Shown: positions 981 to 50,182, counted from the first letter of the stretch. The stretch is 64,000 nt of DNA from Nitrospirales bacterium (GCA_965223295.1 CBDCWC010000003.1:704001-768000); one strand, 5' to 3'. Notes: generated from the letters alone by a model not told the origin. Translations and numbers: made by a program.

Positions 981-1609
981 GTCCTGATCATCTCGATGTC
1001 TTACAAGAACTGCTCAATATCGGGGTTGGACGAGCCGCCGGGTCCCTGAACCAGATGTTGGAGAAACCCATCCGACTACATGTGCCTTTTATTCGAGTAG
1101 GAAAACCAGACGAGGTTTCTCAAGAAATACAAAAAATGCAGGAAACCACGTTATCCTCTGTACAATTACCCTTTAAAGGAACATTTCAAGGATCGGCCTG
1201 TCTGCTTTTCCCGACAGACAGCGCGGCAGCCTTAGTGACCGCCCTCACCGGAGAAGCAGAAGATACGGACACGATGGACTCCTTACGAGAGGCCACACTG
1301 ACCGAAATTGGTAATATTGTGCTCAACGGTGTCATGGGCTCGTTGGCCAATATTTTACAAAATCAGATTACCTACTCCGTTCCGTTTTATGAGGAAACAT
1401 CGTTGCAGGGATTACTCCAACCCTCACGATCAGAATCTTCCGAAATGGTTCTCTGGGCCCACACCCAATTTACCATTGAAGATTACGATCTGACGGGAGA
1501 TATTATGCTGATGTTCGGCATCCCTGATCTTGGCCTGCTCATCAACGCGGTAAGCGAACTTTCCCAATTAACAACATGTCAACATGTCTCAGCAGGATCC
1601 ACTTCTTAA
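971..1609 (+). CDS. cheC: CheC-like phosphatase/inhibitor of MCP methylation family protein
   Basis: [15 protein letters not shown] and [11 protein letters not shown] (D/S-x3-E-x2-N motifs); start moved to ATG 971 (GGAGG SD, overlaps REC stop). Confidence 0.85.
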
Positions 1610-29955: not shown

Positions 29956-32900
29956 TTACACTTCTCTCATCCCTGCGGATACAGTAGGTTTCGACTGCAT
30001 GAGATTCACGCCTGCCTTCTTCACATCCATGAAGAAACTAAACAACGCTGGCACCAAAATGAGAGTAAATATTGTCGAGGTCACCAAACCACCTAACACA
30101 ATACTACCAATGCCACGATAGAGCTCAGACCCAGCTCCTGATGCGATGACTAATGGGAAAAGACCAAAAGTGGTGGTTAGCATGCTCATCATGATAGGAC
30201 GAAAACGCGTCCGAACTGATTCGGCGATAGCTTCTATGGGATCATCGGTAGACCAGGTCTTCGACGATACCATGGCATCATGTCCTTCCCGACGTCTGGG
30301 GTCAAGAAAATTTAAGGCTTGATGGACAACCAAGATCGCATTATTGACAACGACTCCTAGGAGAATAATAAACCCCAACATCGTCAACACATCCATGGGC
30401 TGATGCGCCACAAACTGATTCACTAACGCCAAACCCAGTAAGCCTCCAGCCGCAGCCAGAGGCACACTGGTGATAATGACCAACGGATACAAAAAACTCT
30501 CAAATAAGGCCGCGATCAGCAGATACGTAATCAGCAGCGCCAACAACAGATTCCATTTTAGGGCATCGTACGTCTTCGTCAAATCATCAGCAGTTCCCGA
30601 CAGCCGAATATTGTAGAGTTCTCCTAAAGAGCCTCCTTCCTTTAATGGCATAATAATCTGATCTTGTAGCAACGCCATCGCCGTTTCGATCGGCATCTTC
30701 GATGGTGGAATAACCTGAATCACAATCGCGCGCTCACGTTCAATATGATTGATCTGCTCTGGACCGGGAACCAGTTCAACATTCGCAATGGCCCCAACGG
30801 TGGTCAATCGCCCTCCTGGGGTATGAATCGGAATTTTTTGGATATCTTGAGTCCGCGTGGCATATCGGTCTTCTCCTCGAACCGTCAAATCAATCTCATC
30901 CCCCTCATATTGAAAATCACTTGCCTTGGCTCCATCGACAAGTGCATTAATCGTAAAACCCAGCTCTTGATTCGTCAGTCGAAGATCCGCAGCCCGATCC
31001 CGTCGTAACTTCACATGCAATTCTGGCGTTCCCAAATCTAGACTGGGCTTAGGCCGAACTTGGGCATCAGGCATGACGCCCTTGACTTGCTGAAAAATTT
31101 TTCCACCTAACCCCACTAATGTATTCAAGTCGGGTCCGGTGATTTCCATATCGATGTTTCGACCTTCGCCAAGGCCTCGTTGAAACAGACTCCGCTGAGT
31201 AATAATACTGATGACTCCTGGCAAATCTGCAGTCGCCTTGCGCATCAGTGGAATCAGTTCTTTCACCCGCCCATCCTCGTTTGTCCGTGCGCCCATAAAC
31301 ACCATCCGTCCAAGTGCCACATAGAAGAAATTTCGAATACTCGGACCATCCAGTTGCGCCTCTTCCTCTGAGCCAGGCTCAGCATCCCAGTAGGGGCTTA
31401 ATACCGATTCGATCGTGTTCCCCATTTTCACAAAGGTGTCCATATTGTAGCCAGGCGGTGGCAACAAGATGCCCATGACTAGATTGCGATTTCCCGTTGG
31501 CAAATATTCGGCTTGCGGCACGAGCATCCACGCCGCGACTCCAGACAATCCTATGAGACCGGCAATCGTGACAAGACGAAGAAACCCGTTTCGACAAATC
31601 ATGGACACAAACGCACTGAGACGCCCGGCAAGCCCTGAATGTCGAAGAGCCCCTCCATTGTGCGAAACAACGGAAGCCTCCTCCCATTCGTCTTGGACAT
31701 CTTGGTTCGTGGGAACATCATGGCTTTTCTGACGTGTCGTCAAAATTCGTGCAGACAAACTCGGAATGACAGTGATCGAAACCAACAGGCTGAGGCCGAC
31801 ACCAGCACTAATCGCAATGGCGATATCCCGAAAGAGTTGTCCCGATTGCTGCTCAATAAAGACAATAGGGATGAAAACGGCGATAGTGGTTAAGGTACTG
31901 GCTAACACCGCCCCCCAGACTTCAGTCGTCCCATCATAGGCTGCTTGAACAAGAGACTTACCTGTTTCACGGTGGCGATAGATGTTTTCCAACACCACAA
32001 TAGAGTTATCAACCAGCATCCCAGCCGCAAAGGTCATCCCCGCTAAACTAATCACATTGAGGTTGCGTTCTAAGAGCCACAGGGCAATAAACGTTCCCAT
32101 GATACTGATGGGGATCGCTAGACCAATCACTAGTGTTGTGCTACCCGTTCGTAAAAACAAATACAGTACGATGATCGCCAACAAACTCCCCACGACTAAG
32201 TTTTGTTGGACCAAAGACAACGAACTATAAATGTAATCCGTCTCATCATAGACTTGATAAATTTTAAACCCACGTGGATTCAATCGGCCTTCATTCAATT
32301 CGCGGACGGCTTCTCGCAACCCATCCATAATATCCAGCACATTAGCCCCTGGCTGCCGAATCGCATTCACCGCAATACAAGGCCTGCCGCTTTGCCGTAC
32401 GATATTCGTCGGATCTTTGTAATCCAACTTGACGGATGCCACATCTCGCACGTACACCGGCGCGCCATTTCGGCGAGCAATAATTACTGCCTCAACATCA
32501 GCAGGACTTTTATACTCACCGACCGTCCGAACGACATAGGAGCGTTTCCCTTCATCAAAATCCCCACCACTAAAATCACGATTTTCTTGATCAAGCGCTC
32601 GTGCCAAATCCAGCCACGTGAGCGACCGAGCCGCCAATTTGGCGGGATCCACTAAGACTTGCATCTCTCGCTCACGTCCGCCATAGACATTAGACGCCGC
32701 GACACCGGGGACACGTTCGAAACGAGCTTTAATCACATCCTCGGCATAGTTATACATGGTATCGATTGGCACAGGATTATTTTCTAACGCTTCAAAAATA
32801 AACCAACCGATGGCCGACCCCGCAGTATCCGCACTACTTAGGACAGGTTCATCTGTTTCATCTGGATATTCTTTCACCTGATTAAGACGATTGGAGACAA

Positions 32901-33219
32901 GAAGCAGCGACGAATCGGGATCGGTGCCAGCAGGAAATCGCAAAATGATTTTGCCATTCCCAAATGAGCTTTCGGAAAACATCCGCTCAAGGCCCTGCAC
33001 ACCCTTCAACTGTTCTTCTTGTTCATCAATGATTTCTCGCTCAATTTCATGAGAACTTGCCCCATGCCATCGAGTATCAACCGTAATTTCTTCTTTGGTC
33101 ACGTCAGGGGTCAGCTGAATCGGTAAGCGCAGTAGCGACACAACACCGAATAACACGACAAAGAGCACCCCAACCGTCGCCGTGACCGGATACCGTATGG
33201 CCGATTGAATCACATTCAT
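29956..33219 (-). CDS. RND efflux permease (AcrB/AcrD/AcrF family)
   Basis: GMLVDNSIVVLENI, ASTLTT, RFRPIMM; 1087 aa. Confidence 0.95.
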   Translation of the reverse strand: MNVIQSAIRYPVTATVGVLFVVLFGVVSLLRLPIQLTPDVTKEEITVDTRWHGASSHEIEREIIDEQEEQLKGVQGLERMFSESSFGNGKIILRFPAGTDPDSSLLLVSNRLNQVKEYPDETDEPVLSSADTAGSAIGWFIFEALENNPVPIDTMYNYAEDVIKARFERVPGVAASNVYGGREREMQVLVDPAKLAARSLTWLDLARALDQENRDFSGGDFDEGKRSYVVRTVGEYKSPADVEAVIIARRNGAPVYVRDVASVKLDYKDPTNIVRQSGRPCIAVNAIRQPGANVLDIMDGLREAVRELNEGRLNPRGFKIYQVYDETDYIYSSLSLVQQNLVVGSLLAIIVLYLFLRTGSTTLVIGLAIPISIMGTFIALWLLERNLNVISLAGMTFAAGMLVDNSIVVLENIYRHRETGKSLVQAAYDGTTEVWGAVLASTLTTIAVFIPIVFIEQQSGQLFRDIAIAISAGVGLSLLVSITVIPSLSARILTTRQKSHDVPTNQDVQDEWEEASVVSHNGGALRHSGLAGRLSAFVSMICRNGFLRLVTIAGLIGLSGVAAWMLVPQAEYLPTGNRNLVMGILLPPPGYNMDTFVKMGNTIESVLSPYWDAEPGSEEEAQLDGPSIRNFFYVALGRMVFMGARTNEDGRVKELIPLMRKATADLPGVISIITQRSLFQRGLGEGRNIDMEITGPDLNTLVGLGGKIFQQVKGVMPDAQVRPKPSLDLGTPELHVKLRRDRAADLRLTNQELGFTINALVDGAKASDFQYEGDEIDLTVRGEDRYATRTQDIQKIPIHTPGGRLTTVGAIANVELVPGPEQINHIERERAIVIQVIPPSKMPIETAMALLQDQIIMPLKEGGSLGELYNIRLSGTADDLTKTYDALKWNLLLALLITYLLIAALFESFLYPLVIITSVPLAAAGGLLGLALVNQFVAHQPMDVLTMLGFIILLGVVVNNAILVVHQALNFLDPRRREGHDAMVSSKTWSTDDPIEAIAESVRTRFRPIMMSMLTTTFGLFPLVIASGAGSELYRGIGSIVLGGLVTSTIFTLILVPALFSFFMDVKKAGVNLMQSKPTVSAGMREV

Positions 33220-34319
33220 GTCTGGGGTTCCTCTTCCAGCACACGAACCGGTTGCCCCGGAAAGAGCCGTTCATTGCCTTCCACCACAACAAGCATTCCG
33301 GGCTCAAGAGAGCCTTCGACTTCCACTTCATTATTGACGTGATTAGTCCCCTCCACAGGAACCTGAGTCACACTGCCTTCGTTCATGAGAAACACAAACT
33401 CCATACCCCCGCGAAGGACCAAAGCATCTTTGGGAACAACGAGTGCCTCATAGGGTGTCCCCACTTCCAGCGTCACCCGGGAGACCAGCCCACTCTTTAT
33501 CGTGAGATCGACATTCGGCAATTCTACTTTGATGGGAAATGTTCGAGAATTTCTATCAGCTTGCGCCACGACCGAAAAGACTTTTCCTTTGGCTTGAAAC
33601 CCTCGGAGACCATCAAACGTCGCCAAGACCGCCGCGCCGACTTTAATGTCGCCGACATAGCGCTCAGGCAAAGGCACTTCAACTTGCACCCGCGACAGAT
33701 CAACCAATTCCACGATAGCTCCGCCAGCTTGAATCCATTGGCCGACCTCAGTAAATTCTTGCGTCACCCACCCTGCAAATGGGGCTACGACGCGAGTTTT
33801 TTCTAATTGATCTCGGACTTGCAACATCTCAGACTCTAATAGCACCAACCGTTGCGCCAGCGCGGCCTCTTGCGTGACAGCATCATCATATTCTTTCTGC
33901 GTCACTAACTGTTTCGTAAAGAGGGCCTTAATGCGTTCTAAATCTTTTTTCGCCTGTTGATAGCGAGTCTCGGCCTCGCGATGCGAGGCCTCTGCCGAAT
34001 TGAGCTGGATGGTTAGCGTATCTGTTCGAAGTTGCGCCAACAATTGGCCTTTTTTCACGGCCATCCCCTCTTCCACGGGAAACTTCTCAACCAGCGCAGC
34101 GATTTCTCCAGCTACCACACTTCGCCGCCAAGGCTCTACCGTCCCCACCAGCTCCACTGTTTGTTGCACCGTTCGAGTGACGACTTCAGCAACACGAACA
34201 GGCATCGGAGGCGGTCCTTGTGGAGGTTGAGCGGCTTGCTGCTCACTGCACCCTTGCAAACCCGTCACACCAAGAAGCATCACCAGAAGACATGAACCTA
34301 TGTCTGTACGAATTGTCAT
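33216..34319 (-). CDS. RND periplasmic adaptor (MFP) lipoprotein
   Basis: LQGC lipobox, VEEG..VKKGQLL, APFAG. Confidence 0.92.
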   Translation of the reverse strand: MTIRTDIGSCLLVMLLGVTGLQGCSEQQAAQPPQGPPPMPVRVAEVVTRTVQQTVELVGTVEPWRRSVVAGEIAALVEKFPVEEGMAVKKGQLLAQLRTDTLTIQLNSAEASHREAETRYQQAKKDLERIKALFTKQLVTQKEYDDAVTQEAALAQRLVLLESEMLQVRDQLEKTRVVAPFAGWVTQEFTEVGQWIQAGGAIVELVDLSRVQVEVPLPERYVGDIKVGAAVLATFDGLRGFQAKGKVFSVVAQADRNSRTFPIKVELPNVDLTIKSGLVSRVTLEVGTPYEALVVPKDALVLRGGMEFVFLMNEGSVTQVPVEGTNHVNNEVEVEGSLEPGMLVVVEGNERLFPGQPVRVLEEEPQT

Positions 34320-34331
34320 CTTATTAGAAAA

Positions 34332-34976
34332 TTATTTTTTCAGAGCGGTTACCTCAATACCACCGAGAAACAACGCACTTAGCCACTCACCTTTATCAAC
34401 CAGTGATTCTTTAGGACCCGCTTCTAAGATCCAAACATAAATTGTCGAGTTCAACATCCCATGCAACGCTAAGGAGGTATCCTTGGCGTTCACCTTTCGA
34501 AATTCTCCAGCTTTGATCCCTGCTTTGATCAAATTGGCCACAAGCTCTATCTGAGCTAAATATTTTTTCCATACCCGATCGCCAAAGGCACTTTTCACGG
34601 TCCATTCAAACCCGCTCCATTCAGATACATAGATTCGGAAGAAGTCACGGTTTTGATCAGCGAATGCAAGTTTCACTCGTATGACTTCCCGCAACTTCTC
34701 TGATGTGGTTGTGCCATTTTTGGTAGCTTCCTTCAGAAGGTTCAACAGTTCTTCAACCTTCACCTCAACCAAAGAAATATAAATTTCTTCTTTACTCTTA
34801 AAGAATCGATACACGGTGCCCATGGCAAACTGGGATGATTCTGCAATTTCCGCCATACTGGTCTTAAAAAATCCATGTTGCGAAAACATGCGCTCAGCGG
34901 CTAAAAGAATCTCTTCTCGCCGAGCCTCGTATTCTCGCTGTTTTCGTTGGGACCGTTGATCCACGCGTGGCCTCAC
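34332..34976 (-). CDS. TetR/AcrR family regulator
   Basis: ILLAA..F...GF..TSM.EIA...GTVY.FFKSKEE. Confidence 0.92.
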   Translation of the reverse strand: MRPRVDQRSQRKQREYEARREEILLAAERMFSQHGFFKTSMAEIAESSQFAMGTVYRFFKSKEEIYISLVEVKVEELLNLLKEATKNGTTTSEKLREVIRVKLAFADQNRDFFRIYVSEWSGFEWTVKSAFGDRVWKKYLAQIELVANLIKAGIKAGEFRKVNAKDTSLALHGMLNSTIYVWILEAGPKESLVDKGEWLSALFLGGIEVTALKK

Positions 34977-38591: not shown

Positions 38592-38637
38592 CTCGCTCTA
38601 CCCCCTAGCAAAAAGTTGATACGTCATTCGCCTGTAA

Positions 38638-38827
38638 GAGAATGTTGAAAAAAGCCGCCAGCGGCGTTCTCGCCATTTTGTGGTGCTCACGTAGTGCCAG
38701 AGGCTCCGTGCATCAAGATGGTTGCGGACTTTCTGGACGGACCCTTCTGAACATTCCCTTCTGTTTCATGAGTTTGATCTCAATACGAAGACTTATGGGC
38801 TATCAGAGTGAAAGATTCAACAGCCCC
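38638..38827 (+). mobile_element. Family A element copy 6 (extension type II)
   Basis: TGTAA direct repeats at 38633-38637 and 38828-38832; extension nearly identical to copy 3. Confidence 0.9.
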
Positions 38828-38960
38828 TGTAAGAATGTACCCCACTCCTGGAAGCCACACAACCTCGCAGACCCATGTCAATACACAATAGAGGAGCTTA
38901 CAGCGAGGGAAGCAATACAGTATAATTCACGAATCTGATGTTTTGAACAAGGAGAGCACT

Positions 38961-39227
38961 ATGGCACAGAGTAGTTCAGGAGCCGGAACTTCATCATCAC
39001 AAATCCCAAATGCATCACCCGAAACGGAAATCTTGCATGTGGTAATTCAGCGCGATGGCAAACAAGTCAGCGCAAAATGGGGACTGCACCCCAATCTGAA
39101 AGAGGAACTGAAGCCTGAGGAATGGAAAGAACTCACGGAAATCATGGGGAAAGTGACAACATTAGTTGGGGGTCGTTTTTCCAAGATTCTGAACAAAGCC
39201 GAAGAAGAAGTGTCGGGCACCGCTTAA
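38961..39227 (+). CDS. Small hypothetical protein
   Basis: AAGGAG SD before ATG 38961; 88 aa. Confidence 0.7.
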   Translation: MAQSSSGAGTSSSQIPNASPETEILHVVIQRDGKQVSAKWGLHPNLKEELKPEEWKELTEIMGKVTTLVGGRFSKILNKAEEEVSGTA

Positions 39228-39324
39228 GTTATATGAGGACCGTTGTCGTTTCACTCCCCGTCTTTCACCTTCCCTCTTCAGAATGAAGGCCTCAGCGGCT
39301 CCTCGATGCTCTGCAGTAAGGAGT

Positions 39325-40623
39325 CTATCGACCAAAATTTTGGATTGTATTGAAATCGGGGACCTGTTGAGCAGCAAAATCATTAGGAACATCACCCATA
39401 CGGATAAGAGAAATGGCCACCGGAACCATATTAGAAAAATCTTGATAGGCACCCACAAGCTGTTGTCCATCTTTCGATAACGTCGCGGTCGATTGCCCCA
39501 TCGTCCCCAAGGCCGTTCGATACATGAATGTCACTTGATTGCCTTCGAGTTGGCCTTCCCCTTCGGCAGTCACCATCGTTCCCATTGCGCTCGTGGTCAC
39601 TTCGGTCATTGTGACATGGTTACCTTGTTGCTGTAAGACGTAAGAAATCGTCGGTTCGTCTGGATTCTTCCAAACTCCAGTCACTACAAGGTTTCGGCCT
39701 TTTTCTAACATAGCCTTCAAGGTTTGCCGCTCACCAGGACGAAGATCAACAGTACTAGTCCAAGAACGAAAGCCGTCCTTTCTGACCATGACATCATATT
39801 CATCAGGATCCAGACCAGACACCACTACAGGCCCTTGAGAAGTCTGCCCAACCAATTTATCATCAACATAAACGTGAGCGTTCGTCGGAGTTGACTCAAT
39901 AACTAACGAGGCCAACTCCGTTGGCCGGACTACGGACGATGAGGGATTAACCGTTTGAAGAGGAAAGCCTGACCAGTTTTCTACTGTAAATTTGGCAATC
40001 TGAGCTGGTTTGGCATTGCCAAATTGCCCTGTTACTTCCATCACCACTCCAATGACCCGTCCTTGATACAACACAGGGCCTCCTGAATTGCCCTCCGCCA
40101 CCGCCCCCGAAAATTTCAGAATGGGTCCATCAAAGCCTGAGACCGTTCCTTTCGTCACCGCCCACTCATTCCCTCCTACTCTAGGGAATCCTATTAAATG
40201 AATTTCTTCTCCTCCACTAACCCGAGTCGTCGCATCCCACGGTAAAATGTGCACATCATCAGGAAGATCACCTTTGACTTTTAGCAACGCTAACCCACGC
40301 ATGTCTCCCCCTTCTTTCTTCACAACCTTCGCGAACAACGGTTCTTCTTGATGACTGAAAAATGTCGCCTGTATAGAGCGTGGAGCTTCCACCTCCCCTT
40401 CCACAACATGAGACGCCGTCACAATATACAAATGCTTCTTGCTCCTGCCAGCAATAAACCCGGTCCCAATTTTTCTGGCATTCGAAAACTCAGTCGCAAT
40501 CTTGACGACGCCTTTTTTGAGCGTCCTAATATCCAACTGCGCCACTGCGGCAGTCAGTCCTGTTCCTAACATAAACCAACACAGCACAATCATATGGGCA
40601 ATAATTTTCATAAAACCACTCAT
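39325..40623 (-). CDS. Exported trypsin-like serine protease with PEGA domain and C-terminal beta-rich domain
   Basis: Signal peptide; GTGF, VTASHVV, GNSGGPV; IESTP.NAHVYVD...G.T...Y.V.VRKDGF PEGA motif. Confidence 0.85.
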   Translation of the reverse strand: MSGFMKIIAHMIVLCWFMLGTGLTAAVAQLDIRTLKKGVVKIATEFSNARKIGTGFIAGRSKKHLYIVTASHVVEGEVEAPRSIQATFFSHQEEPLFAKVVKKEGGDMRGLALLKVKGDLPDDVHILPWDATTRVSGGEEIHLIGFPRVGGNEWAVTKGTVSGFDGPILKFSGAVAEGNSGGPVLYQGRVIGVVMEVTGQFGNAKPAQIAKFTVENWSGFPLQTVNPSSSVVRPTELASLVIESTPTNAHVYVDDKLVGQTSQGPVVVSGLDPDEYDVMVRKDGFRSWTSTVDLRPGERQTLKAMLEKGRNLVVTGVWKNPDEPTISYVLQQQGNHVTMTEVTTSAMGTMVTAEGEGQLEGNQVTFMYRTALGTMGQSTATLSKDGQQLVGAYQDFSNMVPVAISLIRMGDVPNDFAAQQVPDFNTIQNFGR

Positions 40624-40663
40624 TTACCAAAAAGAAAAGAAGGACAGGGCATCGCACATGAGG

Positions 40664-42256
40664 TTAGGAAGCATCTTTGGCGCAGCGAAAGCCTGTTTGA
40701 TCATCAGAATCTTCTGGTAACTGATTTTCCCGAACCTTCAGCTCTAAATAAGAAAACCACGACCCGCCACGTTTGACCTTTTCACTCCCCTTTTGAGGAC
40801 CCGATGGATCCCTCTGAGGGCTACTCTGATAATACCCCGGATCATACCAATCACTTGTCCATTCCCAAACATTCCCGGCCATATCAAACAACCCCCAAGG
40901 GTTGGGAGAAAAAGATCCAACCGGAGCAGCTCGGGCAAACCCATCATCCACTTTCTCAAATTCGATGGAGCCACTAAAGATCGAGCGAAATTGGATATCA
41001 GGAATATTTCCTACTTGTTCTGTGGGTGCGACATCCCCCCACCAGTGTTTGGTGGATGTCCCAGCTCGAGCAGAGTATTCCCATTCCGCTTCCGTTGGTA
41101 GCCGTTTCCTTGCCCATTCACAGTAGGTCTGGGCATCAAACCAAGAAACCTGTACCACCGGAAATTTCTCGCCTGTATTTTCAGTGCTTGAACCCTCACC
41201 CATGGGATGACGCCAGTTCGCCTTCTCAATTTCCTGAGGTTGCCACGTACTGCCAAAAAATACGCCGTCTTTTTTCATGACCGCCATTTGCGTTCCTTGA
41301 TGTTCTACAGTGCTCTGATATCCAGACTCTTTTACAAATTTGCTAAATTGTTCGACGGTAATTTCATGAGAATCCATATAAAATGACCCAACCTGAACAT
41401 GATGAGATGGTGAATAGTCCGCGTTACGTTCAGGCAAACAAAAGTCCACCTTCATAATGGAATCCCATTCACACACTTCATTGGGTTCAGAACCCATAAT
41501 AAATTCGCCAGAGGGAATCAATACCATTTTAAGATCATCATTCCTGGTGAGTGAGGAACCGTCTTCTTCATCAACGGCACGGTCAAATTCCTCTTTAACA
41601 CTTTCTTCCAGGGAACCCGGTTCAACACCAATCCCTTCTAAGTATGTCAATAAACTCTTGTGGGTAATACCTAGACCAAACTCTCCTCTATTAGTCATCG
41701 CCATCCCGACAACCTTCCCGTTGAAGACGATAGGGCCACCGGAAAATCTAGCCGCAACTCCCGGATCTAAGGTGATATCATGTACCACACGATTGGAAAT
41801 ATCTCGGTTTACGACTGCCCAGTCTCCACCACCACCTGGATGCCCAACAACCACTACCCGTTCCCCTCCGGAAACCAATTGGACAGACGATGGAAATTCC
41901 AAAATCTGTATATTGTTCGGAAAGTGTTCTGTTCCTCGAACAATGAGAACGGCCAGTCCTCGCAGATCATCCCCAACCTGAGCTCCAGGCATTACGGCTG
42001 CAGTGATTGGAATTTGGGGGGCATCTGAAGGATGTGCCGAAAAAAATTCGACCCGTGGCTGTTGATCCCCTGCAATTACATGGGCAGCCGTCATGACATA
42101 GACCGTTTCCGGTTCCAGACGAACAATAAAACCCGTTCCGGTTTGCCCTGTTGTCGTGGTAATTTTCACCACCCCAGATTTCAAACTATCTAGATCCTGC
42201 GCCCAAGCCGCTGGCCCAAATGTAAACATGTTGATTAGGCTGAAAAGACAACACAT
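40664..42256 (-). CDS. Exported trypsin-like protease fused to an FGE-sulfatase/SUMF1 (CLec-fold) domain
   Basis: GTGF, TAAHVI, FSGGP; F.MGS, PVVQVSW, RLPTEAEWEY, GLFDMAGNVWEW, RGGSW, GFRC. Start is either 42256 or the upstream 42433/42430. Confidence 0.85.
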   Translation of the reverse strand: MCCLFSLINMFTFGPAAWAQDLDSLKSGVVKITTTTGQTGTGFIVRLEPETVYVMTAAHVIAGDQQPRVEFFSAHPSDAPQIPITAAVMPGAQVGDDLRGLAVLIVRGTEHFPNNIQILEFPSSVQLVSGGERVVVVGHPGGGGDWAVVNRDISNRVVHDITLDPGVAARFSGGPIVFNGKVVGMAMTNRGEFGLGITHKSLLTYLEGIGVEPGSLEESVKEEFDRAVDEEDGSSLTRNDDLKMVLIPSGEFIMGSEPNEVCEWDSIMKVDFCLPERNADYSPSHHVQVGSFYMDSHEITVEQFSKFVKESGYQSTVEHQGTQMAVMKKDGVFFGSTWQPQEIEKANWRHPMGEGSSTENTGEKFPVVQVSWFDAQTYCEWARKRLPTEAEWEYSARAGTSTKHWWGDVAPTEQVGNIPDIQFRSIFSGSIEFEKVDDGFARAAPVGSFSPNPWGLFDMAGNVWEWTSDWYDPGYYQSSPQRDPSGPQKGSEKVKRGGSWFSYLELKVRENQLPEDSDDQTGFRCAKDAS

Positions 42257-42322
42257 GGCTTCCCTGAAATAACAAAAGAGTCCCTCATTTAAGTTGCATG
42301 AAGAATTGTTTTCTCTGCCTGG

Positions 42323-42392
42323 GTCATTCCCGTAAAAACGGGAATCCAGATTATTTATTACATTTCTGGATGCCCGCCTTCGCGGGCATGAT
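42323..42392. repeat. REPIN: inverted pair of GTCATTCCCG-N-CGGGAATCCAG-type REPs
   Basis: GTCATTCCCGTAAAAACGGGAATCCAG (42323-42349) and CTGGATGCCCGCCTTCGCGGGCATGAT (42366-42392). Confidence 0.85.
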
Positions 42393-42448
42393 GAACATCT
42401 AGCTCGTCCTATACACCTTTTCAAAAACATCACTCTTACCCGTTGTTG

Positions 42449-43960
42449 CTATAACCCAACTAAATTTCTAAGCGGCGACAAGACCGGATGGAAACGAATG
42501 ACATCGAATACCGTTGGTCTAAGATCTCGTGGATTGTCGTGCGTTCCTGTCTTAATGTAGCCAACTTTTCCTTGCATATCTACCACAAACATATGAGTCA
42601 TAAAATCGACACGAATTGAAGTAATTTCAAATCGCTCAAGATCGTCGACAGACAAAAACATCGGGGCCCGAAATGTGACCTCGGGAAAATCTGAAAGATT
42701 CCGATAGCGAACAACCCCTTGGAAATTGGGATGACTCTTTCGTTCACCAGTCTTAGGATCTTGCCAAGACACATCCAACGACTCTACTGGTAAGGTCGTC
42801 GTGGAAAATGTAAATTTTTCCGTACGTGTACTCGGATTAATCACCATGCTAAAGGTGGTATCGTTTCCTTCTATTGTCATTGTTCCAGAATGTCCATCGA
42901 ACAGAGCCTGATATGTCAGTTCTTGATTCTGCGTAAACGGCAAATTGGAAACCTCTTGCAACAAAAGACCTTCTTCCACCATTTCTACATTACCTAAGCC
43001 TGACAAGACCACTCGCTGTTTTTCTTGTTCGGCCCTCATTGTCAGCGTCATAGCCTCATCACTAGATGTTTCAAGCATGACGGTGGTTGGTTTGGCAAGC
43101 AGAATCGCATCTAACTTTCCAACAGACGGTTCACTTTTATTGATGGACTCGAGTGTGACCATGGCGTTCATTCCAGACTTCACCGCCCCAAATTTCCAGG
43201 CTCGCCCCTGGCTTTGCAATTCTATCCAAGCCTTGGGCGGATACACATCGGCTTCCCAATCCAACTCGTCAGGATTAGCCACAAGCAATTGATTGGGGCT
43301 CATTACCACATGTCCCACCTGTTGCAGAGAAAGCTTGTGAAACATCAATGGATCCGTCAATCGTTTCTGATCAGACCCGGGATTGATAAACGCTTCAAAG
43401 CGGCCCGTCTGCACTTGAATATTCACATCTGCATCGATGTGCCAGAATGAACTGACGAGTAACAACATGACGAAAACAATGGCCACAAGGACTTTTATGC
43501 CAATGACCGAGGCAATTTTCCCGATCCACGATGCTTTGGTCACCGCCTCTACTGGTAACGCGAGAGGCTTTCCTTCTAACTTTGCCTTGATGACGGAAAG
43601 AAGAATAGAAAATTCCTTGGATTCCGCTGTCCCCTTCCAGTCCAAAAACCGCAAAGCTTGGATCCCCGTAAAAGCCAAGGGAATCGCATTCGCTTCCAAC
43701 ATGACTGGGACAATCTTCTCTCCTTTTAAGGCCGCCCGAGCTTCTGCTCGAACCCATCTGGATCGCTTGGATTGCGTAGTCCATAAGACCACTACACATT
43801 TGGCCCCTGTGAGCGCCTCTTCAATGGTCTTATCCCATTCACTCCCAACCTGAATATCTCGATCCCACCACACAGAAAGACCCGAGGCTTCCAGGCCATG
43901 CGCCACTTGCTGAGCAATGGCCCGATCTTCACTTGAATAACTTATGAAGATGTCCTTCAT
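42449..43960 (-). CDS. TIR-domain single-pass membrane protein with large extracytoplasmic domain
   Basis: DIFISYSSED, GLSVWWD, VVVLWT..S..SRWVRAE (TIR_2); TM helix VLVAIVFVMLLLV; about 330-aa beta-rich C-terminal region. Confidence 0.88.
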   Translation of the reverse strand: MKDIFISYSSEDRAIAQQVAHGLEASGLSVWWDRDIQVGSEWDKTIEEALTGAKCVVVLWTTQSKRSRWVRAEARAALKGEKIVPVMLEANAIPLAFTGIQALRFLDWKGTAESKEFSILLSVIKAKLEGKPLALPVEAVTKASWIGKIASVIGIKVLVAIVFVMLLLVSSFWHIDADVNIQVQTGRFEAFINPGSDQKRLTDPLMFHKLSLQQVGHVVMSPNQLLVANPDELDWEADVYPPKAWIELQSQGRAWKFGAVKSGMNAMVTLESINKSEPSVGKLDAILLAKPTTVMLETSSDEAMTLTMRAEQEKQRVVLSGLGNVEMVEEGLLLQEVSNLPFTQNQELTYQALFDGHSGTMTIEGNDTTFSMVINPSTRTEKFTFSTTTLPVESLDVSWQDPKTGERKSHPNFQGVVRYRNLSDFPEVTFRAPMFLSVDDLERFEITSIRVDFMTHMFVVDMQGKVGYIKTGTHDNPRDLRPTVFDVIRFHPVLSPLRNLVGL

Positions 43961-43979
43961 AAGGCACGAGACAATCCGG

Positions 43980-44741
43980 TTAGGGATTAAGAGAAGGTTG
44001 GTGGAAGAAATGAACTTCTTTGTTGATGGATTGATTCGTAGAAAGAGAAAACCCTGTGATCTTTAGTACATATGAACCGGGCAGAGCATCTCTGGCATTC
44101 CATTGAATGGTAAACGGTCGCCCTGCACGCTTCCGCCGAAACTTTTGTACATTCATCGTCTGCCCTGTTTCTTGCTGAAGGATGGCAGCCATAAGCCGTG
44201 CATCTTCCCCTGTTTTCATCGTGAAGAGATAACCCTCGATTGTCGCAGGAGGATGGGCATAATACAGCACAGCCGGCGCGACTCGTTCTACTGTCGAACT
44301 GGTTGCGCTGCCCAAACGCACCAATGCGCCCATGTCGTACAGATCCAACTTAGGCACAAGTTGATTCAAGACAGGATCAGTAGGCCAGGTAAATACATTC
44401 TGAAAACCTGATTTCCAAGGGGTTGCAGGCCGAACCTTATCCAGCCAATAATAGGCTCGATAGTCTAGCTCTCGGACGATAAGATGCACTATGTCGTCGC
44501 CTTCCAAATAAAAACGAAGTGAGAGACGCTCAGGGAACCGCTCTGTCTCTACAGGCTCTTGATAATCAACAAGGACAGAAATCAGTTCAATGTCATAGCC
44601 CGAGACCGGTTTAGGCTTCACGCCTTCATAGCGATCCCCTCGCTGTTGATATTGGAGGTCAAGTTGAGCCCAGACAAGCATGGGAAACGTTCCAAGCAAG
44701 ACGAGGCCAATACGAAGTCCCCTAGAAACCCGTTTCATCAT
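43980..44741 (-). CDS. Secreted hypothetical protein (first gene of the TIR/protease operon)
   Basis: Signal peptide ending VWA-Q; C-terminal Ig-like W.......GSYVLKI pattern. Confidence 0.75.
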   Translation of the reverse strand: MMKRVSRGLRIGLVLLGTFPMLVWAQLDLQYQQRGDRYEGVKPKPVSGYDIELISVLVDYQEPVETERFPERLSLRFYLEGDDIVHLIVRELDYRAYYWLDKVRPATPWKSGFQNVFTWPTDPVLNQLVPKLDLYDMGALVRLGSATSSTVERVAPAVLYYAHPPATIEGYLFTMKTGEDARLMAAILQQETGQTMNVQKFRRKRAGRPFTIQWNARDALPGSYVLKITGFSLSTNQSINKEVHFFHQPSLNP

Positions 44742-44965: not shown

Positions 44966-46480
44966 CTATGTGCCTTGAGGTAAGCGTTCTTCTTCCCAGC
45001 CACCGCCAATGGCTTTGAAGAGCGTGACCATGTCGTTGAGACGAGCGCGTTGGGTTTGCACCAATTGCAATTCGGCGGACAGCACGGTCCGCTGCGCATC
45101 TAAAACGTCTAAGTATGTGACTAAACCTTGGCGGTATCGAATTTCTGCTAATTCACGCGCGTTTTGTGAAGCTTGGACCTGGCGTTGTTGATGGACGAGT
45201 TGTTCTTGCCGGGTCTGCAAGGCACTCAGCACATCCGCTACTTCGCGAAAGGCATTCAGGATGGTGTGTTGATATTGCTCTAGCATCTGCTGATAACGGG
45301 ATTCGGCCACTTCTAAACGGGCCTTGTTGGTATAACCCTCGAAAATAGGAAGTGACACGGAAGGCCCTACACTAAAATTTCGGCTCGCCCAGTTGAACCA
45401 TTCAGAAAATTCACTGGTTTGAAATCCCCCCGTTCCCGTTAGGGCCACCGTCGGGAAAAAATACGCGCGTGCTTCTCCTATGCGAGCATTGGCCGCTTTT
45501 AAGTTTTCTTCCACTTCCACAATATCCGGACGCCGTTGCAATAGATCCGCCGGCAACCCGATGGGTATGGACGGCTGAACCACGACCGCCCGCAATGGCT
45601 TCGTCTCAAGACCCAACGCATTGGGGTGCGCTCCCGACAGCCATTCCAGTTGATGTTGCTGCACCGCTCGCAACCGGCGTAATTCCGGCACTTGCGCCGC
45701 CGTTTCAGAGACAAGAATTTCCGCTCGTTTAACATCCAGATCTGACACCAGACCCGCCTCGGCTCTGGCTTTGATAATGGAGAGAGAATCTTGCTGCAAG
45801 GCGAGATTGTGGGTGGCAATTTCCAGCTGTTCGTCTAATTCTCGCAGGCGAAAATAGCCTTGAGCCACATCACTCATAAGGGACAACGCAATGCCACGCC
45901 GATTCATCTCACTGGCAAAAGCTTCGGCAGAAAACGCCTCTTGGTTTCGACGGATACGTCCCCATAAATCTAACTCCCACCGTAAATCTAAGGCCGTATT
46001 CCAAATATCAAAATTCGCGCCTGGTGGCGCAAATCCTTCGGGTGAGACTCCCGTTGGAGCCGCCAAGATAGTTTCTGACCGCCGCACACGGGTGTAGTTC
46101 CCATCCAATGACAGATTGGGATACAGACCGGCGCCAGCTCCTTGCGCCAAAGCCCGCGCCTCCAGTACCCGGAACCCTGCCTGCCGTACATCATGATTAC
46201 GTTCTAACGCTTGTTCAATGAGGTGGTTGAGCTCTTCATTCTGAAATACCTGCCACCAAGACGCCTCCGGAACCAACCCTACTGAAACCGAAAGATCCGA
46301 CGTTGTACCCGTCATGGTCATGGCATCCCAATTTTGAGGCGTTCTAGAATCTGGCATCTGGTAATCAGGCCCCATCAAGCAGGCGGGAAAGCCGGCGATA
46401 ATTCCTATGATCAACAGGCAGAAGGTCCAATCAACCGGTCGTTGAGCTAATACATATTTCCGTGTCGGCAAAGGTCTCAT
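44966..46480 (-). CDS. NodT/OprM-type outer membrane efflux lipoprotein
   Basis: C..GPDY..P, WW..F....L..LI..AL..N.D, WELDLWG, LLQRRPDI, LFKAIGGGW. Confidence 0.93.
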   Translation of the reverse strand: MRPLPTRKYVLAQRPVDWTFCLLIIGIIAGFPACLMGPDYQMPDSRTPQNWDAMTMTGTTSDLSVSVGLVPEASWWQVFQNEELNHLIEQALERNHDVRQAGFRVLEARALAQGAGAGLYPNLSLDGNYTRVRRSETILAAPTGVSPEGFAPPGANFDIWNTALDLRWELDLWGRIRRNQEAFSAEAFASEMNRRGIALSLMSDVAQGYFRLRELDEQLEIATHNLALQQDSLSIIKARAEAGLVSDLDVKRAEILVSETAAQVPELRRLRAVQQHQLEWLSGAHPNALGLETKPLRAVVVQPSIPIGLPADLLQRRPDIVEVEENLKAANARIGEARAYFFPTVALTGTGGFQTSEFSEWFNWASRNFSVGPSVSLPIFEGYTNKARLEVAESRYQQMLEQYQHTILNAFREVADVLSALQTRQEQLVHQQRQVQASQNARELAEIRYRQGLVTYLDVLDAQRTVLSAELQLVQTQRARLNDMVTLFKAIGGGWEEERLPQGT

Positions 46481-47427
46481 GATGCTGGTTCGGAATGAGT
46501 CGCCTCGCGGTCAATGAAGACATCGACTTGTTGACCGACGTAGAGAGGGAAGCTTGGTTTTTCAAATTGATAAATGACTTGGAGCACGCGGGTATCGACA
46601 CGTTCGCGATTATCTCCGGTCAATGAACGTTTGGGAACGATATAGGGCTCGATTCGGTAAAATGTCAGCCGAATCGCCTGATCTGTTTGTCCCTTGAGAT
46701 AGGCCACTGCCGGACGACCGGGAACGACCAATGGGGCATTCACTTCATCAATATCTGCACGAACCTGGAGCGTTTCCGTATCGCCTAATAAAATAAGCGG
46801 CTCACTAGCATTGACCGTGGCATATTCCCCGGCACGAACATTGACCTGCAAAATGGTACCCGCTCGGGGAGCCCGAATAGTTAAACGCTCTAAGAGTGAC
46901 TGAACCTCATCACGCTGCGTTTGCGCTAACCGCAAGTCGGCTTTCGCCCGGATCAGTCCCCGCTTGGCCGATTCCACTTCATGCCATTTCCGCTGCACAT
47001 CATCCTGACTGACAGCCCGACGATCTTTCACGGACTGTAGTCGCGCGAATTGATCTTGCACATCACGCAACCGAACCTCCTGTTCCGCGATCCGCGCTGA
47101 GGCTGAGGGCAAGGAATCGGTTCGAGTCTGAAGTTGAGCCCGCAGTTCACGATCATCTAACTGAAAAAGCGGAGCACCATGGTTGACTGTGTCGGCCACC
47201 TTGACATGTACCTTGGTGACTAACCCCGAGACCGGGGGAGCAATTCTGACATTCTCATTGACGGCTTCGATAATCCCGGCTGCCGCCACGGTTGCCTGAT
47301 ACGGGTTCGATGGTGGGGCTTCAATCGGCGGAGGCGCGGCCGGTTTATCCCCTGCCCCCCACAACGTGGCAATCGTTAATAGCACACCCGCGATAGCCAG
47401 CCAGACACTCACCCGCCGAAATACCAT
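46477..47427 (-). CDS. HlyD/DevB-type membrane fusion protein
   Basis: AAGIIE, IRAP.AG.IL, VPKRSLTG...ERVDTRVLQV; start ATG 47427 with AGGAGG SD. Confidence 0.88.
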   Translation of the reverse strand: MVFRRVSVWLAIAGVLLTIATLWGAGDKPAAPPPIEAPPSNPYQATVAAAGIIEAVNENVRIAPPVSGLVTKVHVKVADTVNHGAPLFQLDDRELRAQLQTRTDSLPSASARIAEQEVRLRDVQDQFARLQSVKDRRAVSQDDVQRKWHEVESAKRGLIRAKADLRLAQTQRDEVQSLLERLTIRAPRAGTILQVNVRAGEYATVNASEPLILLGDTETLQVRADIDEVNAPLVVPGRPAVAYLKGQTDQAIRLTFYRIEPYIVPKRSLTGDNRERVDTRVLQVIYQFEKPSFPLYVGQQVDVFIDREATHSEPAS

Positions 47428-47451
47428 TACACAAGATCCTCCTACCCTTGT

Positions 47452-47640
47452 TGGATTGTTGAATAATGAAGATATCAAAAGCCCTATTTCGCCAGGAAGC
47501 CTTGTCCATCAACAGTGTGGGTCTGTTCAAAAAAGTCCGTCCAGCAAGGCCGCAGCCATTTTTGCGCGCAGAGCGTACTGGCACTACGTGAGCACGGAAA
47601 AATGGCGAGAACGCCGCTGGCGGCTTTTTTCAACAGACCC
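47452..47640 (-). mobile_element. Family A element copy 7 (extension type I) in the last codons of the ABC ATPase gene
   Basis: CTTGT direct repeats at 47447-47451 and 47641-47645. Confidence 0.92.
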
Positions 47641-48370
47641 CTTGTTGAATTTGTCCTATCCGCCCATCTTCCATATGCACAATCCGATCACCAAATTCAA
47701 AAATCCGAGAATCATGTGTGACAATGATGACAGCGCGATCAGGATGCTTGCCCACGGCACATAACTCTTCCACAATCCGATGCCCAGTCTCCCCATCCAA
47801 ACTCGCCGTGGGTTCATCACAGAGAAGCAATTGCGGTTCTGCAACCAGCGCACGGGCAATGGCCACCCGCTGCTGTTCCCCACCCGACAACTTTGTGGGC
47901 AAGGCCGTTAAACGTTCGCCCATTCCCAACGTCTTCAACACCTCCTCAGCACGATCTTTAGCATCTGATTTTGCAACTCCCTGAACAAAAAGCGGAACCG
48001 CAGCATTTTCCACAGCCGTCAGCGTGGGCAGTAAATTATATTGCTGAAAGATAAAGCCCAAATGATCCCGGCGAAAATTGGTTTTCTCCGACGCTGATAA
48101 CTCGTGAATCGACTCTCCCAGCACCCGCACATCACCATCATCAGTTTCTAAAATTCCGGCAATTACGGACAGCAATGTGGTTTTTCCACTTCCAGATGGA
48201 CCGACCAGTAACAACACTTCCCCGCTTGCCACATCTAGATCCACTCCCTTCAGCACAGGAATTTTCGTGTCTCCTTCACCAAAGGATTTCGTGATACCTC
48301 GTGCGCGAACCAACCAATCTGACAAATCCTGCTCCAAGGATTCCACACTGTGAGACACTCCGTTATCCAC
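47630..48370 (-). CDS. ABC transporter ATP-binding protein (DevA/LolD/MacB-like)
   Basis: GPSGSGKT, LSGGEQQR, CDEPT, VTHD. Confidence 0.93.
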   Translation of the reverse strand: MDNGVSHSVESLEQDLSDWLVRARGITKSFGEGDTKIPVLKGVDLDVASGEVLLLVGPSGSGKTTLLSVIAGILETDDGDVRVLGESIHELSASEKTNFRRDHLGFIFQQYNLLPTLTAVENAAVPLFVQGVAKSDAKDRAEEVLKTLGMGERLTALPTKLSGGEQQRVAIARALVAEPQLLLCDEPTASLDGETGHRIVEELCAVGKHPDRAVIIVTHDSRIFEFGDRIVHMEDGRIGQIQQGVC

Positions 48371-49496
48371 GAAACACCACCGCTGGTTCCAACTTGGCTA
48401 ATTTTCGAATGCTAATGGCACTGGACAAACTGCAGATCATCAGAAGCGCGACTCCAACACCGATCAATAACGGCCAGGTTTCATTAAACGGCAACCGACC
48501 TCCGCTCCCGGCCGTGAGTCCAAACACCGTCGCTAATCCCACACCCACGCCATACCCAATCAACCCAACGGTAAAGCTTTGCAAGAGAATCATTTTGGCC
48601 AACATCCCTGTACTGGCTCCGATGGCTTTGAGCGCTCCAAACTGCCGCAGATTCTCGATGGTAAATAGATAAAACGTTTGACCGGCAATAGCCATGCCAA
48701 CAATAAAACCTAATAAGACCGTGGTTCCAAAATTCACACCAATACCCGTATATTTTAAAATCCACTGTACCGTTTTCCACCCAAACTGATCGCCCGTATA
48801 CGCCCCTAATCCCGTGTGCTTTTGGATGCGTTGAGCAAGTTCTTCGGGGCTCAATCCCTCAATTGGACTGGCCAATACATATGACAACTTCCGCCGCTCT
48901 TGAGGCGTCACTTCTAACGCCCGTTCATACGTGGTGTAGACAAACGGAAACCCTTGAAAGCTTTTTTGCGCTTTGACTATGGCTACAATCCGGACGCGAT
49001 GGTCATTAATTTCAAAGGTCGAACCAAGATGGATCATCTCAGGGCCGCCTAAGCGCTCCACCCCTAATTGATCAATCGCGACGGCTTCAGGCGACCGGAG
49101 CTCTTCAATATTTCCTTCAAGAACTGTAGCTGGACGGCCAATCAACGTGCTGGACTCTAACCCCACTAATGAAATTTGCTCAAAGTTCCCATTACGCAAG
49201 CGTGCACGTTGTACCCCTTTATAGAGAGGCACCGCCCATTCCACACCAGGCACACTCCGAACCACATTGACGGCCGTATCTGCTAGGGGTTTAATTTCTT
49301 CCACTTGATTGATATTTGGATCGGTCACCCACACTGGGGCATTAATATTCGTGATGCCAGATTGCGACCAAGTCATGAGTCCCCAGAAAATTGACCCTTG
49401 CTGCACAATTAACATTGTTGAAAAGGTCAACCCTGCTAGAAGCATCATATATTTCGCCCGATCTCCAAATAGCATTTTGAGTGCGACAAAATTCAT
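48363..49496 (-). CDS. ABC transporter permease (DevC/FtsX-MacB type)
   Basis: ALKMLFGDRAKY, QTFYLFT.ENLRQFGALKAIG, EPA.VFR. Confidence 0.9.
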   Translation of the reverse strand: MNFVALKMLFGDRAKYMMLLAGLTFSTMLIVQQGSIFWGLMTWSQSGITNINAPVWVTDPNINQVEEIKPLADTAVNVVRSVPGVEWAVPLYKGVQRARLRNGNFEQISLVGLESSTLIGRPATVLEGNIEELRSPEAVAIDQLGVERLGGPEMIHLGSTFEINDHRVRIVAIVKAQKSFQGFPFVYTTYERALEVTPQERRKLSYVLASPIEGLSPEELAQRIQKHTGLGAYTGDQFGWKTVQWILKYTGIGVNFGTTVLLGFIVGMAIAGQTFYLFTIENLRQFGALKAIGASTGMLAKMILLQSFTVGLIGYGVGVGLATVFGLTAGSGGRLPFNETWPLLIGVGVALLMICSLSSAISIRKLAKLEPAVVFRG

Positions 49497-50182
49497 GACT
49501 TGTCTTTCCGCTTTCGGCTCTTTGATGAACGAGTGAAACCTGTTCGACCTGAATGAACATCTGATGGCTTACGCAATCCATTCAAAAATACTTCCACAAA
49601 GGTCCGAGTAATCTCTTCTGAGTCCTCTGCCACCGGCGCTTGAAACAACACCGTGAGAAGTCGATGATAGATCAACATCCCCATGAACGATCGAGCGGCA
49701 ACCAGTGGGGGGACAGGCCGAAAGACTCCTTCTTGAATGCGTTGTTCAATGTACGCACTCAACACATCGTAAAAATGGCGAATATGGTTATGAAAAAACA
49801 TATCCGATAATTCATGGTTTTCTAAGGCACTGAACAGAATGAGCCGCATAAGATTTTGATCGGGTGCGCCTCCCACAATCGTTTCTGCAATGGCCTGAAA
49901 GACCTCTATATCCTTCCGCTGCTCGGCAAGTTCTTTAATCTGTTCCAACAGACCAGGGACCGGAGACTTTTCTGCTAAAATGGCGGTATAGAGATCTTCC
50001 TTACTCGGAAAATGTTTAAAAATTAAGGCTTCGCTGACTCCAGCCAGCGCAGCAATTTCACGAGTTTTTGTCCCATTAAATCCTTTTTCTGAGAAAACTG
50101 AAGCTGCAGATTGGATAATGCTGGCCTTCCGGGCAGCAGCCGGAATACGGGGACTTGGCGTTTTTGGTAAAATCTTTTTCAT
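49493..50182 (-). CDS. TetR/AcrR family regulator
   Basis: F.EKGF.GT.TREIA..AGVSE..IFKHF.SKEDL. Confidence 0.92.
   Translation of the reverse strand: MKKILPKTPSPRIPAAARKASIIQSAASVFSEKGFNGTKTREIAALAGVSEALIFKHFPSKEDLYTAILAEKSPVPGLLEQIKELAEQRKDIEVFQAIAETIVGGAPDQNLMRLILFSALENHELSDMFFHNHIRHFYDVLSAYIEQRIQEGVFRPVPPLVAARSFMGMLIYHRLLTVLFQAPVAEDSEEITRTFVEVFLNGLRKPSDVHSGRTGFTRSSKSRKRKDKS

Follow-up and report, generated by a model that had tools for sequence, protein, structure and literature searches.

A conserved gene pair of a secreted protein and a membrane TIR protein with variable trypsin-like protease neighbours in Nitrospirales: a candidate envelope-sensing module

To our knowledge, the bacterial TIR systems described so far respond to intracellular cues, i.e., phage proteins, nucleic acids or second messengers, and the bacterial TIRs of the type treated here are usually enzymes and not adaptors. 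Two other systems offer the nearest parallels to the locus reported here. In the DegS/RseB/RseA system of E. coli, a periplasmic trypsin-fold protease with an additional signal-sensing module acts on a protein that spans the membrane once, N-in/C-out, and has its working domain at the cytoplasmic N-terminus, and a secreted protein binds the outer domain of this substrate. In the Toll/Spaetzle/CLIP pathway of Drosophila, recognition-linked secreted serine proteases and a secreted partner stand upstream of a receptor that crosses the membrane once and has its TIR in the cytoplasm. We analysed a 64,000-nucleotide stretch of DNA from a Nitrospirales bacterium (GCA_965223295.1, CBDCWC010000003.1:704001-768000), referred to as the window, with positions counted from its first letter. 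It holds a locus of four genes, g1 to g4, predicted to encode a secreted protein, a membrane TIR protein and two secreted trypsin-like proteases, respectively. With the E. coli system this locus has in common a protease with an extra module, an N-in/C-out membrane protein and a secreted periplasmic protein; with the Drosophila pathway it has in common secreted proteases, a secreted partner and a single-pass receptor with a cytoplasmic TIR. The constant part, as judged from gene content across genomes, is the pair of g1 and g2, and the locus has the look of a so far undescribed module that senses the envelope, for signalling or immunity.

The four genes are co-oriented open reading frames (ORFs) on the minus strand, between positions 39325 and 44741, and all their features given below lie on that strand. 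ORF g1 is found at 43980-44741 (253 amino acids, aa), g2 at 42449-43960 (503 aa), g3 at 40664-42433 if read from a GTG (589 aa) or 40664-42256 if read from an ATG (530 aa), and g4 at 39325-40623 (432 aa). Between g1 and g2 lie 19 base pairs (bp), between g2 and g3 15 or 192 bp, and between g3 and g4 40 bp, and the ORF calls reproduced exactly the arrangement given in a preliminary description of this DNA. The same description had pointed to similar signal-peptide junctions in the three partners of g2; the letters are indeed present, and, as read by eye, all three proteins start with a signal-peptide-like N-terminus, with the junctions VWA|QLD in g1, AWA|QDLD in g3 and AVA|QLD in g4. Full-length relatives of g1, g2 and g4, together with ratios of non-synonymous to synonymous substitution (dN/dS) of 0.13-0.16 against the closest relative, indicate that these are real genes.

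The conservation of the locus was followed in a set of 42 loci, obtained when an alignment of 20 g2 relatives was used to scan one genome per species. Hidden Markov models of g1, g2 and the trypsin clade of g3 and g4 were run on six-frame translations of all 42 loci, and none was dropped. A g2-family gene was present in 37 loci, 31 of them from Nitrospirota, five from Pseudomonadota (one Burkholderiales) and one from Acidobacteriota. All 37 also had g1, which was placed immediately upstream and on the same strand in 36; the exception was L033, where g1 lies approximately 6 kb away on the opposite strand. Neither g1 nor the trypsin clade was found in the five TIR-only control loci (0/5 for both). 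Of the 32 loci whose downstream flank extends for 1.2 kb or more, 28 had at least one trypsin-clade gene downstream of g2, the protease count being uninformative in L022, L024, L030, L034 and L035, which have no downstream flank. Trypsin-clade genes also followed g2 in the Pseudomonadota loci L032, L033 and L036 and in the Acidobacteriota locus L042, all in other surroundings. The conserved unit is thus, on gene order and content, the g1-g2 pair and not the quartet. That g1 and g2 form a functional pair is well supported, and it is moderately supported that secreted trypsin-like proteases with exchangeable modules are their frequent, not obligatory, companions. The earlier expectation that the genes co-occur was therefore upheld for the g1-g2 adjacency and for the recurring trypsin genes, in three phyla and with the addition of gene fusions, and had to be abandoned for the quartet, since its closest relative has no g3, four loci have no trypsin gene and the modules vary.

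The g2 product carries a TIR domain at 43607-43951 (residues 4-118; Pfam TIR_2, E=6e-28, above the cut-off), a modelled transmembrane (TM) helix at 43451-43528 (approximately residues 145-170), with lysines before and acidic residues after it, and an all-beta ectodomain of about 330 aa at 42452-43444 (residues 173-503), which belongs to no known family. The structural model, with a mean predicted local distance difference test (pLDDT) score of 83.9, shows the TIR, the helix at 145-170, an all-beta part at 178-480 and two short C-terminal helices. The TIR precedes the TM helix and there is no signal peptide. According to the model, g2 is a single-pass type II membrane protein whose N-terminal TIR is predicted to face the cytoplasm and whose C-terminal ectodomain is predicted to face the periplasm, which agrees with what had been read earlier from the sequence, a TIR with the Glu of WVRAE, one TM helix and a beta-rich outer domain. 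This Glu (E73, within RWVRAE) is unchanged in all 20 aligned relatives of g2, and against AbTir and PdTIR it falls on the Glu of their W..E motif; at least 90% of the relatives also have W69, and more than 30 positions are invariant within residues 1-130. In Foldseek the TIR matched those of AbTir, MAL and SARM1 with probability 1.0, with a root-mean-square deviation of 1.5 over 94 columns to AbTir (7uxu), and the SPARTA TIR was also among the fold matches. The conserved W69 and E73 permit, and do not prove, an enzymatic role for the domain.

The ectodomain has the conserved motifs YPPKAW, QELTYQ, SWQDP.TGER and NPRDLRPT, and 57 relatives at 39-100% identity, of which those with a named organism are from Nitrospirales. 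It gave no Pfam family and no usable match in the ESM Atlas, and a profile search of PDB sequences returned a single match at chance level (E=2.4). PsbO and epsilon toxin came up as fold matches at a probability of approximately 0.15 in a search of the full g2 model against the PDB, which the TIR dominates, and both were rejected. Among the most conserved ectodomain parts is the C-terminus at 42452-42535 (residues 476-503), reading NPRDLRPT..F..IR..P....R.L.G(L/F) with a hydrophobic last residue; a helix is predicted for this end, which could serve as a peptide for docking or recognition.

The constant partner of g2, judging from gene neighbourhoods, is g1. Its signal peptide was read by eye as residues 1-25, ahead of the VWA|QLD cleavage site, and the mature N-terminus is strongly conserved, QLDLQYQQRGDRYEG. 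The AlphaFold2 model (mean pLDDT 94.7) begins with an N-terminal helix, corresponding to the signal peptide, after which come two beta-sandwich domains. No family was assigned to g1 by Pfam, NCBIfam or PADLOC, a profile search of PDB sequences gave nothing, and fold searches against PDB and BFVD returned only generic Ig/Fn3-like sandwiches with template modelling scores of 0.14-0.28. A lead from the ESM Atlas, FlgD_ig at 0.91, was taken as merely 'Ig-like', and a comparison of g1 with the g2 ectodomain by hhalign indicated that the two are unrelated (probability 0.3%). A complex prediction of the g2 ectodomain (173-503) with mature g1 (27-253) gave scores of 0.00 and 0.23 with the mark at 0.32; it was made without controls and is given no weight either way.

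Among 1.84 billion cluster representatives, the g1 family comprises 524 at E<=1e-3 and 124 at E<=1e-30, the representatives being those of a clustering at 50%, and it outnumbers the g2 family. Named members are all 'hypothetical protein', and the hosts include Nitrospira, Phycisphaerae and Fodinibius. Pfam domains were found in three of the 12 longer members scanned: P0152 consists of a trypsin of the g2-linked clade, its motifs confirmed in the sequence, followed by a g1 domain; P0078 combines WD40, a g1 domain and FGE; and P0103 joins an Ig-like domain to a g1 domain. Proteins in which a g1 domain is fused with the trypsin clade or with an FGE-like domain are rare, and a separate search for longer fused forms turned up none, which is weak evidence. 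The domain architectures of P0152 and P0078 provide independent evidence for a joint function of the g1 domain with these proteases and with FGE-like modules.

Both proteases contain a Trypsin_2 domain, in g3 at 41702-42139 (Pfam E=1e-9) and in g4 at 40045-40467 (E=6e-18). The two were recognised earlier as paralogues with different C-terminal modules, and this was confirmed by the common motifs LK.GVVKI, GTGFI, TA.HV and RGLA.L and by the domains which follow: an FGE-sulfatase domain of C-type lectin (CLec) fold in g3 (40676-41530, E=1e-60), and a PEGA domain in g4 (39697-39909, E=7e-13), with a further C-terminal domain of approximately 120 aa without Pfam family at 39328-39696. The His and Ser are kept in both, as TAAHV and RFSGGP in g3 and as TASHV and GNSGGP in g4, and in 34 of 34 aligned trypsin domains from the window and the loci; the Ser motif reads RFSGGP in domains of the FGE type, and GNSGGP where the module is PEGA, Lcl_C or Ig. 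When the FGE-like domain of g3 was aligned with the FGEs 6muj and 2q17 (E=1e-46), both Cys of GGSYLCHDSYC fell into gaps, g3 reading GGSWF---SY. The two Cys following the GGS(Y/W) motif are active-site residues of FGE. The fold is present and both cysteines are missing, so g3 was rejected as an active FGE enzyme, and its domain is more probably a non-catalytic binding module of lectin fold. Orthologues of g4 at 58-81% identity were found in 20 of the fetched loci. The trypsin-FGE genes of L003-L026 are 39-47% identical to g3, even where g4 is at 58-72%, which suggests a much faster turnover or divergence for proteases of the FGE type than for those of the PEGA type.

The number of protease copies ranges from 0 to 4 per locus, and the modules are FGE-like, Lcl_C, PEGA or Ig. 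In the Nitrospirales loci, Pfam assigned 41 downstream ORFs as 13 Trypsin+PEGA, 10 Trypsin+FGE, five Trypsin+Lcl_C, one Lcl_C alone, one trypsin fragment, three epimerases and eight without a family, to which L027 adds one more Trypsin+Lcl_C. The Pseudomonadota loci have Trypsin+Ig/ASH, and in L042 the trypsin and FGE genes are fragmented. The pairing of FGE and PEGA seen in the window recurs in L010, L015 and L020. Two of the loci, L014 and L029, are contigs of one metagenome-assembled genome (MAG) with two g1-g2-protease copies; the g2 and proteases of the L029 copy are frame-shifted, which a pseudogene, a strain mixture or long-read errors could explain. In some Nitrospirales, two families without Pfam match recur directly after g2, one with two hydrophobic segments and one secreted and of about 200 aa (in this order L004:9597-10289, L013:9658-10338 and L025:9659-10339; and L002:9528-10223, L025:10336-11019, L028:9672-10382 and L006:11255-11773). 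Both may be alternative accessory parts.

Within the part of g3 that codes for the signal peptide sits an inserted palindromic element with three adjacent hairpins, resembling a repetitive extragenic palindrome (REP) or a miniature inverted-repeat transposable element; its core lies at 42326-42390, and this insertion accounts for the ambiguity between 15 and 192 bp in the start of g3. The window holds one exact copy of the element, which also occurs at the same site in L001 (9570-9650), L005 (9570-9650) and L006 (9560-9620). The reading frame is not interrupted by it in any of three cases, the window, L005 and L006, and the functional start of g3 is likely to be either ATG 42256 or GTG 42433 with read-through of the element. 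The element is missing in L003, L007 and L008, where the trypsin-FGE gene has an ordinary signal peptide and starts approximately 15 bp past the g2 stop, which indicates an operon. In L001 the element is kept and g3 is missing, the element marking the edge of the 1.8-kb g3 absence, and other loci have different REP-like palindromes at this spot. Directly after g2, L009 (2793-3314) and L019 (9692-10258) have ORFs, 82% identical to each other and without family match, which by eye resemble REP-associated tyrosine transposases (RAYT); such ORFs fit the many REP-like palindromes in this slot. The differing palindromes, the RAYT-like genes and the absence of g3 from L001 together suggest that the slot downstream of g2 is a rearrangement hot spot.

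The surroundings of the locus are stable within Nitrospirales. Upstream of g1, on the same strand, lies a TetR-MacB-ABC-HlyD-OMF efflux operon, and a DUF502 gene lies downstream of g4; the OMF gene upstream and DUF502 downstream are syntenic across many Nitrospirales loci. A link of the module to the efflux operon was rejected, the operon not being kept outside Nitrospirales. Relative to L001, dN/dS was 0.146 for g1, 0.134 for g2 (0.074 for the TIR and 0.148 for the ectodomain) and 0.162 for g4, compared to 0.070 for OMF and 0.052 for DUF502. These values come from the L001 pair, synonymous sites being saturated in more distant pairs, and g3 has no counterpart in L001. Hence g1, g2 and g4 are under purifying selection, approximately two times more relaxed than their neighbours.

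The explanation that we favour is that periplasmic proteolysis controls the membrane TIR through the g1-g2 module and its sensor-proteases, and as a whole we give it a probability of roughly 40%. Periplasmic control is proposed because the N-terminal TIR is predicted to be cytoplasmic and the C-terminal domain periplasmic, the partner is secreted, and the proteases carry sensor-like modules. In this model g1-g2 would be the core of the envelope-sensing module, with g1 as a secreted partner or adaptor of the g2 ectodomain. The neighbouring proteases would be exchangeable sensor-proteases, each with a different surface- or glycan-binding module (FGE-like, Lcl_C, PEGA, Ig) for an envelope target, which may be a phage particle, a predator or damaged wall material. 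On binding, they would cut g1 and/or the g2 ectodomain, a site-1-type cleavage like that of DegS on RseA, and the cut would free the membrane-tethered TIR to self-associate. The TIR could then hydrolyse NAD+ or make a nucleotide signal, leading to growth stop or cell death. We infer g1-g2 binding, cleavage by the proteases, activation of the TIR by this cleavage, the TIR product and the trigger. A further-reaching form, in which the interchangeable lectin-tagged proteases meet foreign material outside the cytoplasm and switch on a membrane TIR enzyme through g1 as co-receptor, i.e., extracytoplasmic pattern recognition, we consider unlikely. If true, it would be the first bacterial TIR immune receptor sensing outside the cytoplasm, and an independently arisen counterpart of protease-activated Toll signalling.

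Several results weigh against control of the TIR by periplasmic proteolysis. The locus occupies a syntenic core-genome position beside the efflux operon and outside any mobile defence island. The plasmid and phage collections searched did not contain g1, and g2, which was searched for in plasmid collections and not in phages, gave TIR-level matches without the ectodomain. No gene-wide positive selection was detected in g1, g2 or g4 from dN/dS against L001. Four of the 32 informative loci have no trypsin-clade gene near g2: in L002, g2 is followed by a 231-aa gene without known family and then two subtilases, and in L009, L025 and L028 unassigned genes take the place of the trypsin clade. In L001, the closest relative with approximately 83% DNA identity, g3 is absent, the alignment breaking at window position 42322 and resuming at 40529, and the proteases must then be dispensable or able to act from elsewhere. 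In the window itself, the element within the signal-peptide region may impair the export of g3. At the canonical position of the catalytic Asp there is a Gly (RGLALL), and most sequences have a conserved Asp three residues upstream of it, so that protease activity of the g3/g4 clade, to judge from the aligned residues, is likely and not assured. The synteny within Nitrospirales implies that most of the 31 Nitrospirota adjacencies may be one inherited event, and independent weight rests on the cross-phylum loci and the fusions. Finally, the TIR Glu is kept in more than 70% of all TIRs, enzymes or not, as given in the available part of PMC7075850.

Three other explanations were weighed against these data. 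By a logic of the Toll/Spaetzle type, g1 would be a pro-ligand which target-recognising proteases process and which then binds and clusters g2, switching the TIR on. The co-occurrence of g1, g2 and the proteases fits this equally, a small secreted g1 with a strongly conserved mature N-terminus is what it would call for, and the paralogous proteases could form a cascade. We find it doubtful, as g1 is modelled as a compact two-domain beta-sandwich with no obvious pro-segment, the protease-g1 fusion P0152 fits an adaptor better than a diffusible ligand, and g1-g2 are kept without proteases in four loci. The module could also be a housekeeping one in Nitrospirales, for envelope stress or cell-cell signalling and not for immunity, with g1-g2 reporting the state of envelope or matrix, with the TIR acting as a regulator, as a scaffold or at low output without killing, and with proteases that remodel surface or matrix glycoproteins. 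The stable synteny beside the MacAB/TolC-like efflux operon and DUF502, the purifying selection throughout, the very strong conservation of the TIR, and the lack of g1 and the g2 ectodomain in the searched plasmid and phage collections (phages with g1 only) all speak for this. It appears rather unlikely to us, given that the gain and loss of genes after g2, with REP-like palindromes and RAYT-like transposases, together with a giant CHAT-TPR-S protein in one locus, is more like an arms-race region, and that TIR, trypsin and FGE-lectin are the vocabulary of predicted conflict systems in the available text of PMC7159879.

It may also be that only g1 and g2 belong together, and that the proteases are independent secreted enzymes in a variable region beside the pair. 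Copy numbers from none to four, the missing g3 of L001, and the unrelated genes in the same slot (the two-TM family, the secreted 200-aa family, subtilases and an epimerase) would all be expected from this. Trypsin-clade genes nevertheless follow g2 also in L032, L033, L036 and L042, whose surroundings differ, they are found in none of the five TIR control loci, the gene start lies 15 bp past the g2 stop in uninterrupted loci, and fusions of g1 to trypsin and to FGE exist, all of which makes mere neighbourhood improbable.

Control of the membrane TIR by envelope proteolysis would extend TIR signalling to envelope surveillance, with a membrane-anchored TIR, a periplasmic sensing half, a secreted partner without family and changeable proteases, and it would offer a testable bacterial parallel to sigma-E regulated proteolysis and to Toll. 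The analysis also defines two uncharacterised families, the g1 domain and the g2 ectodomain, and gives an anchor for conflict and stress biology in Nitrospirales, key nitrifiers which are difficult genetically. Should the function be housekeeping, the pair would still be a conserved, unannotated envelope module of this group.

The remaining features concern the neighbouring genes. The efflux operon adjoining g1 is located at 44966-50182, and a second one, TetR-HlyD-AcrB-OMF, further on at 28567-34976; a hybrid histidine kinase of 1519 aa with GAF and PAS domains is encoded at 1584-6143. Between g4 and DUF502 (38592-39324) there are small unassigned ORFs only, e.g., one of 94 aa at 38943-39227 on the plus strand, and many Nitrospirales loci have a gene for a 328-aa NAD-dependent epimerase at this position. 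In one Nitrospirales MAG, a 1869-aa protein of conflict-system type with DUF7379, lipase-like, CHAT (caspase-like) and TPR-S parts lies between OMF and g1 (L028:1222-6831). In three Pseudomonadota loci (L032:3987-7194, L035:1696-4844 and L036:3639-7198), two genes for RoxA-like di-haem cytochromes c stand directly upstream of g1 on the same strand, with further unassigned genes ahead of them. A scan for promoters and terminators gave no more sites than shuffled sequence, and Rfam gave no match over the whole window.

Compared with known defence systems, the locus matches single domains only. In PADLOC the TIR matched SAVED_TIR, PDC-S66 and ThsB, and the proteases matched LmuA and RT-protease, at the domain level, and no system model was matched by the locus beyond this. 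The matches of the TIR to defence models were confined to residues 1-105 or fewer (E=2.6e-15 to 9e-3). NCBIfam likewise gave domain matches only, all far below the curated cut-offs, with TIR scores of 32.7 versus 600 and, for ThcB4, 31.5 versus 220. The g2 TIR is of the same bacterial NADase-like type as the TIR effectors of defence (Thoeris ThsB, SAVED-TIR, retron-TIR and SPARTA TIR-APAZ), whereas the locus is without a ThsA, SAVED, Argonaute or reverse transcriptase partner. Thoeris was rejected, with ThsB matched weakly, at best E=3.9e-5, and SIR2, SLOG and Macro not found in g1-g4 and the scanned neighbours, and so was membership in the cyclic oligonucleotide-based antiphage signalling systems (CBASS) or retrons, for which the matches were to the TIR only.

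Predicted conflict systems centred on NTPases repeatedly contain trypsin, FGE-lectin and TIR domains, according to the available parts of PMC7159879, PMC10907252, PMC8195603 and PMC7075850. Some CLec sensors of these systems are predicted to be periplasmic, and some are diversified by diversity-generating retroelements, as far as the available text of PMC10907252 describes them. The VMAP/iSTAND ternary systems of multicellular bacteria, in the available text of PMC7159879, share with our locus the trypsin-like peptidases, the C-terminal FGE-type lectin modules and the TIR effectors, whereas the core here is a secreted protein with a membrane TIR and not a MoxR-vWA ternary or STAND system. Indeed, none of MoxR, vWA, VMAP, iSTAND/STAND NTPase, EAD, Trypco adaptor or reverse transcriptase was found in g1-g4 or in 17 neighbouring ORFs of the window. 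The available text of PMC7159879 and PMC10907252, whose supplements may list related architectures, mentions no g1 family and no g2 ectodomain, and searches of the full-text literature, subscription journals lying outside their coverage, found no description of a core of secreted protein and membrane TIR. The earlier judgement that this is not a named system thus stands, on both the PADLOC models and the literature.

The preliminary description had proposed an analogue of Toll signalling, of which only the functional analogy can be retained. The TIR of g2 is N-terminal in a type II protein, in contrast to the C-terminal TIR of the type I protein Toll, there are no leucine-rich repeats, no cystine-knot ligand and no CLIP, g1 is modelled as a beta-sandwich, and homology is limited to the TIR and trypsin folds. 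From the DegS/RseB/RseA system the locus differs in being without PDZ, anti-sigma (RseA) and RseB/MucB families in Pfam, in a DegP/HtrA score of 36.3 versus a cut-off of 416.2 in NCBIfam, and in its cytoplasmic domain, which is a TIR and not a sigma-factor trap. In its predicted topology the locus is nevertheless closer to DegS/RseB/RseA than to Toll/Spaetzle, both being analogies and not family membership.

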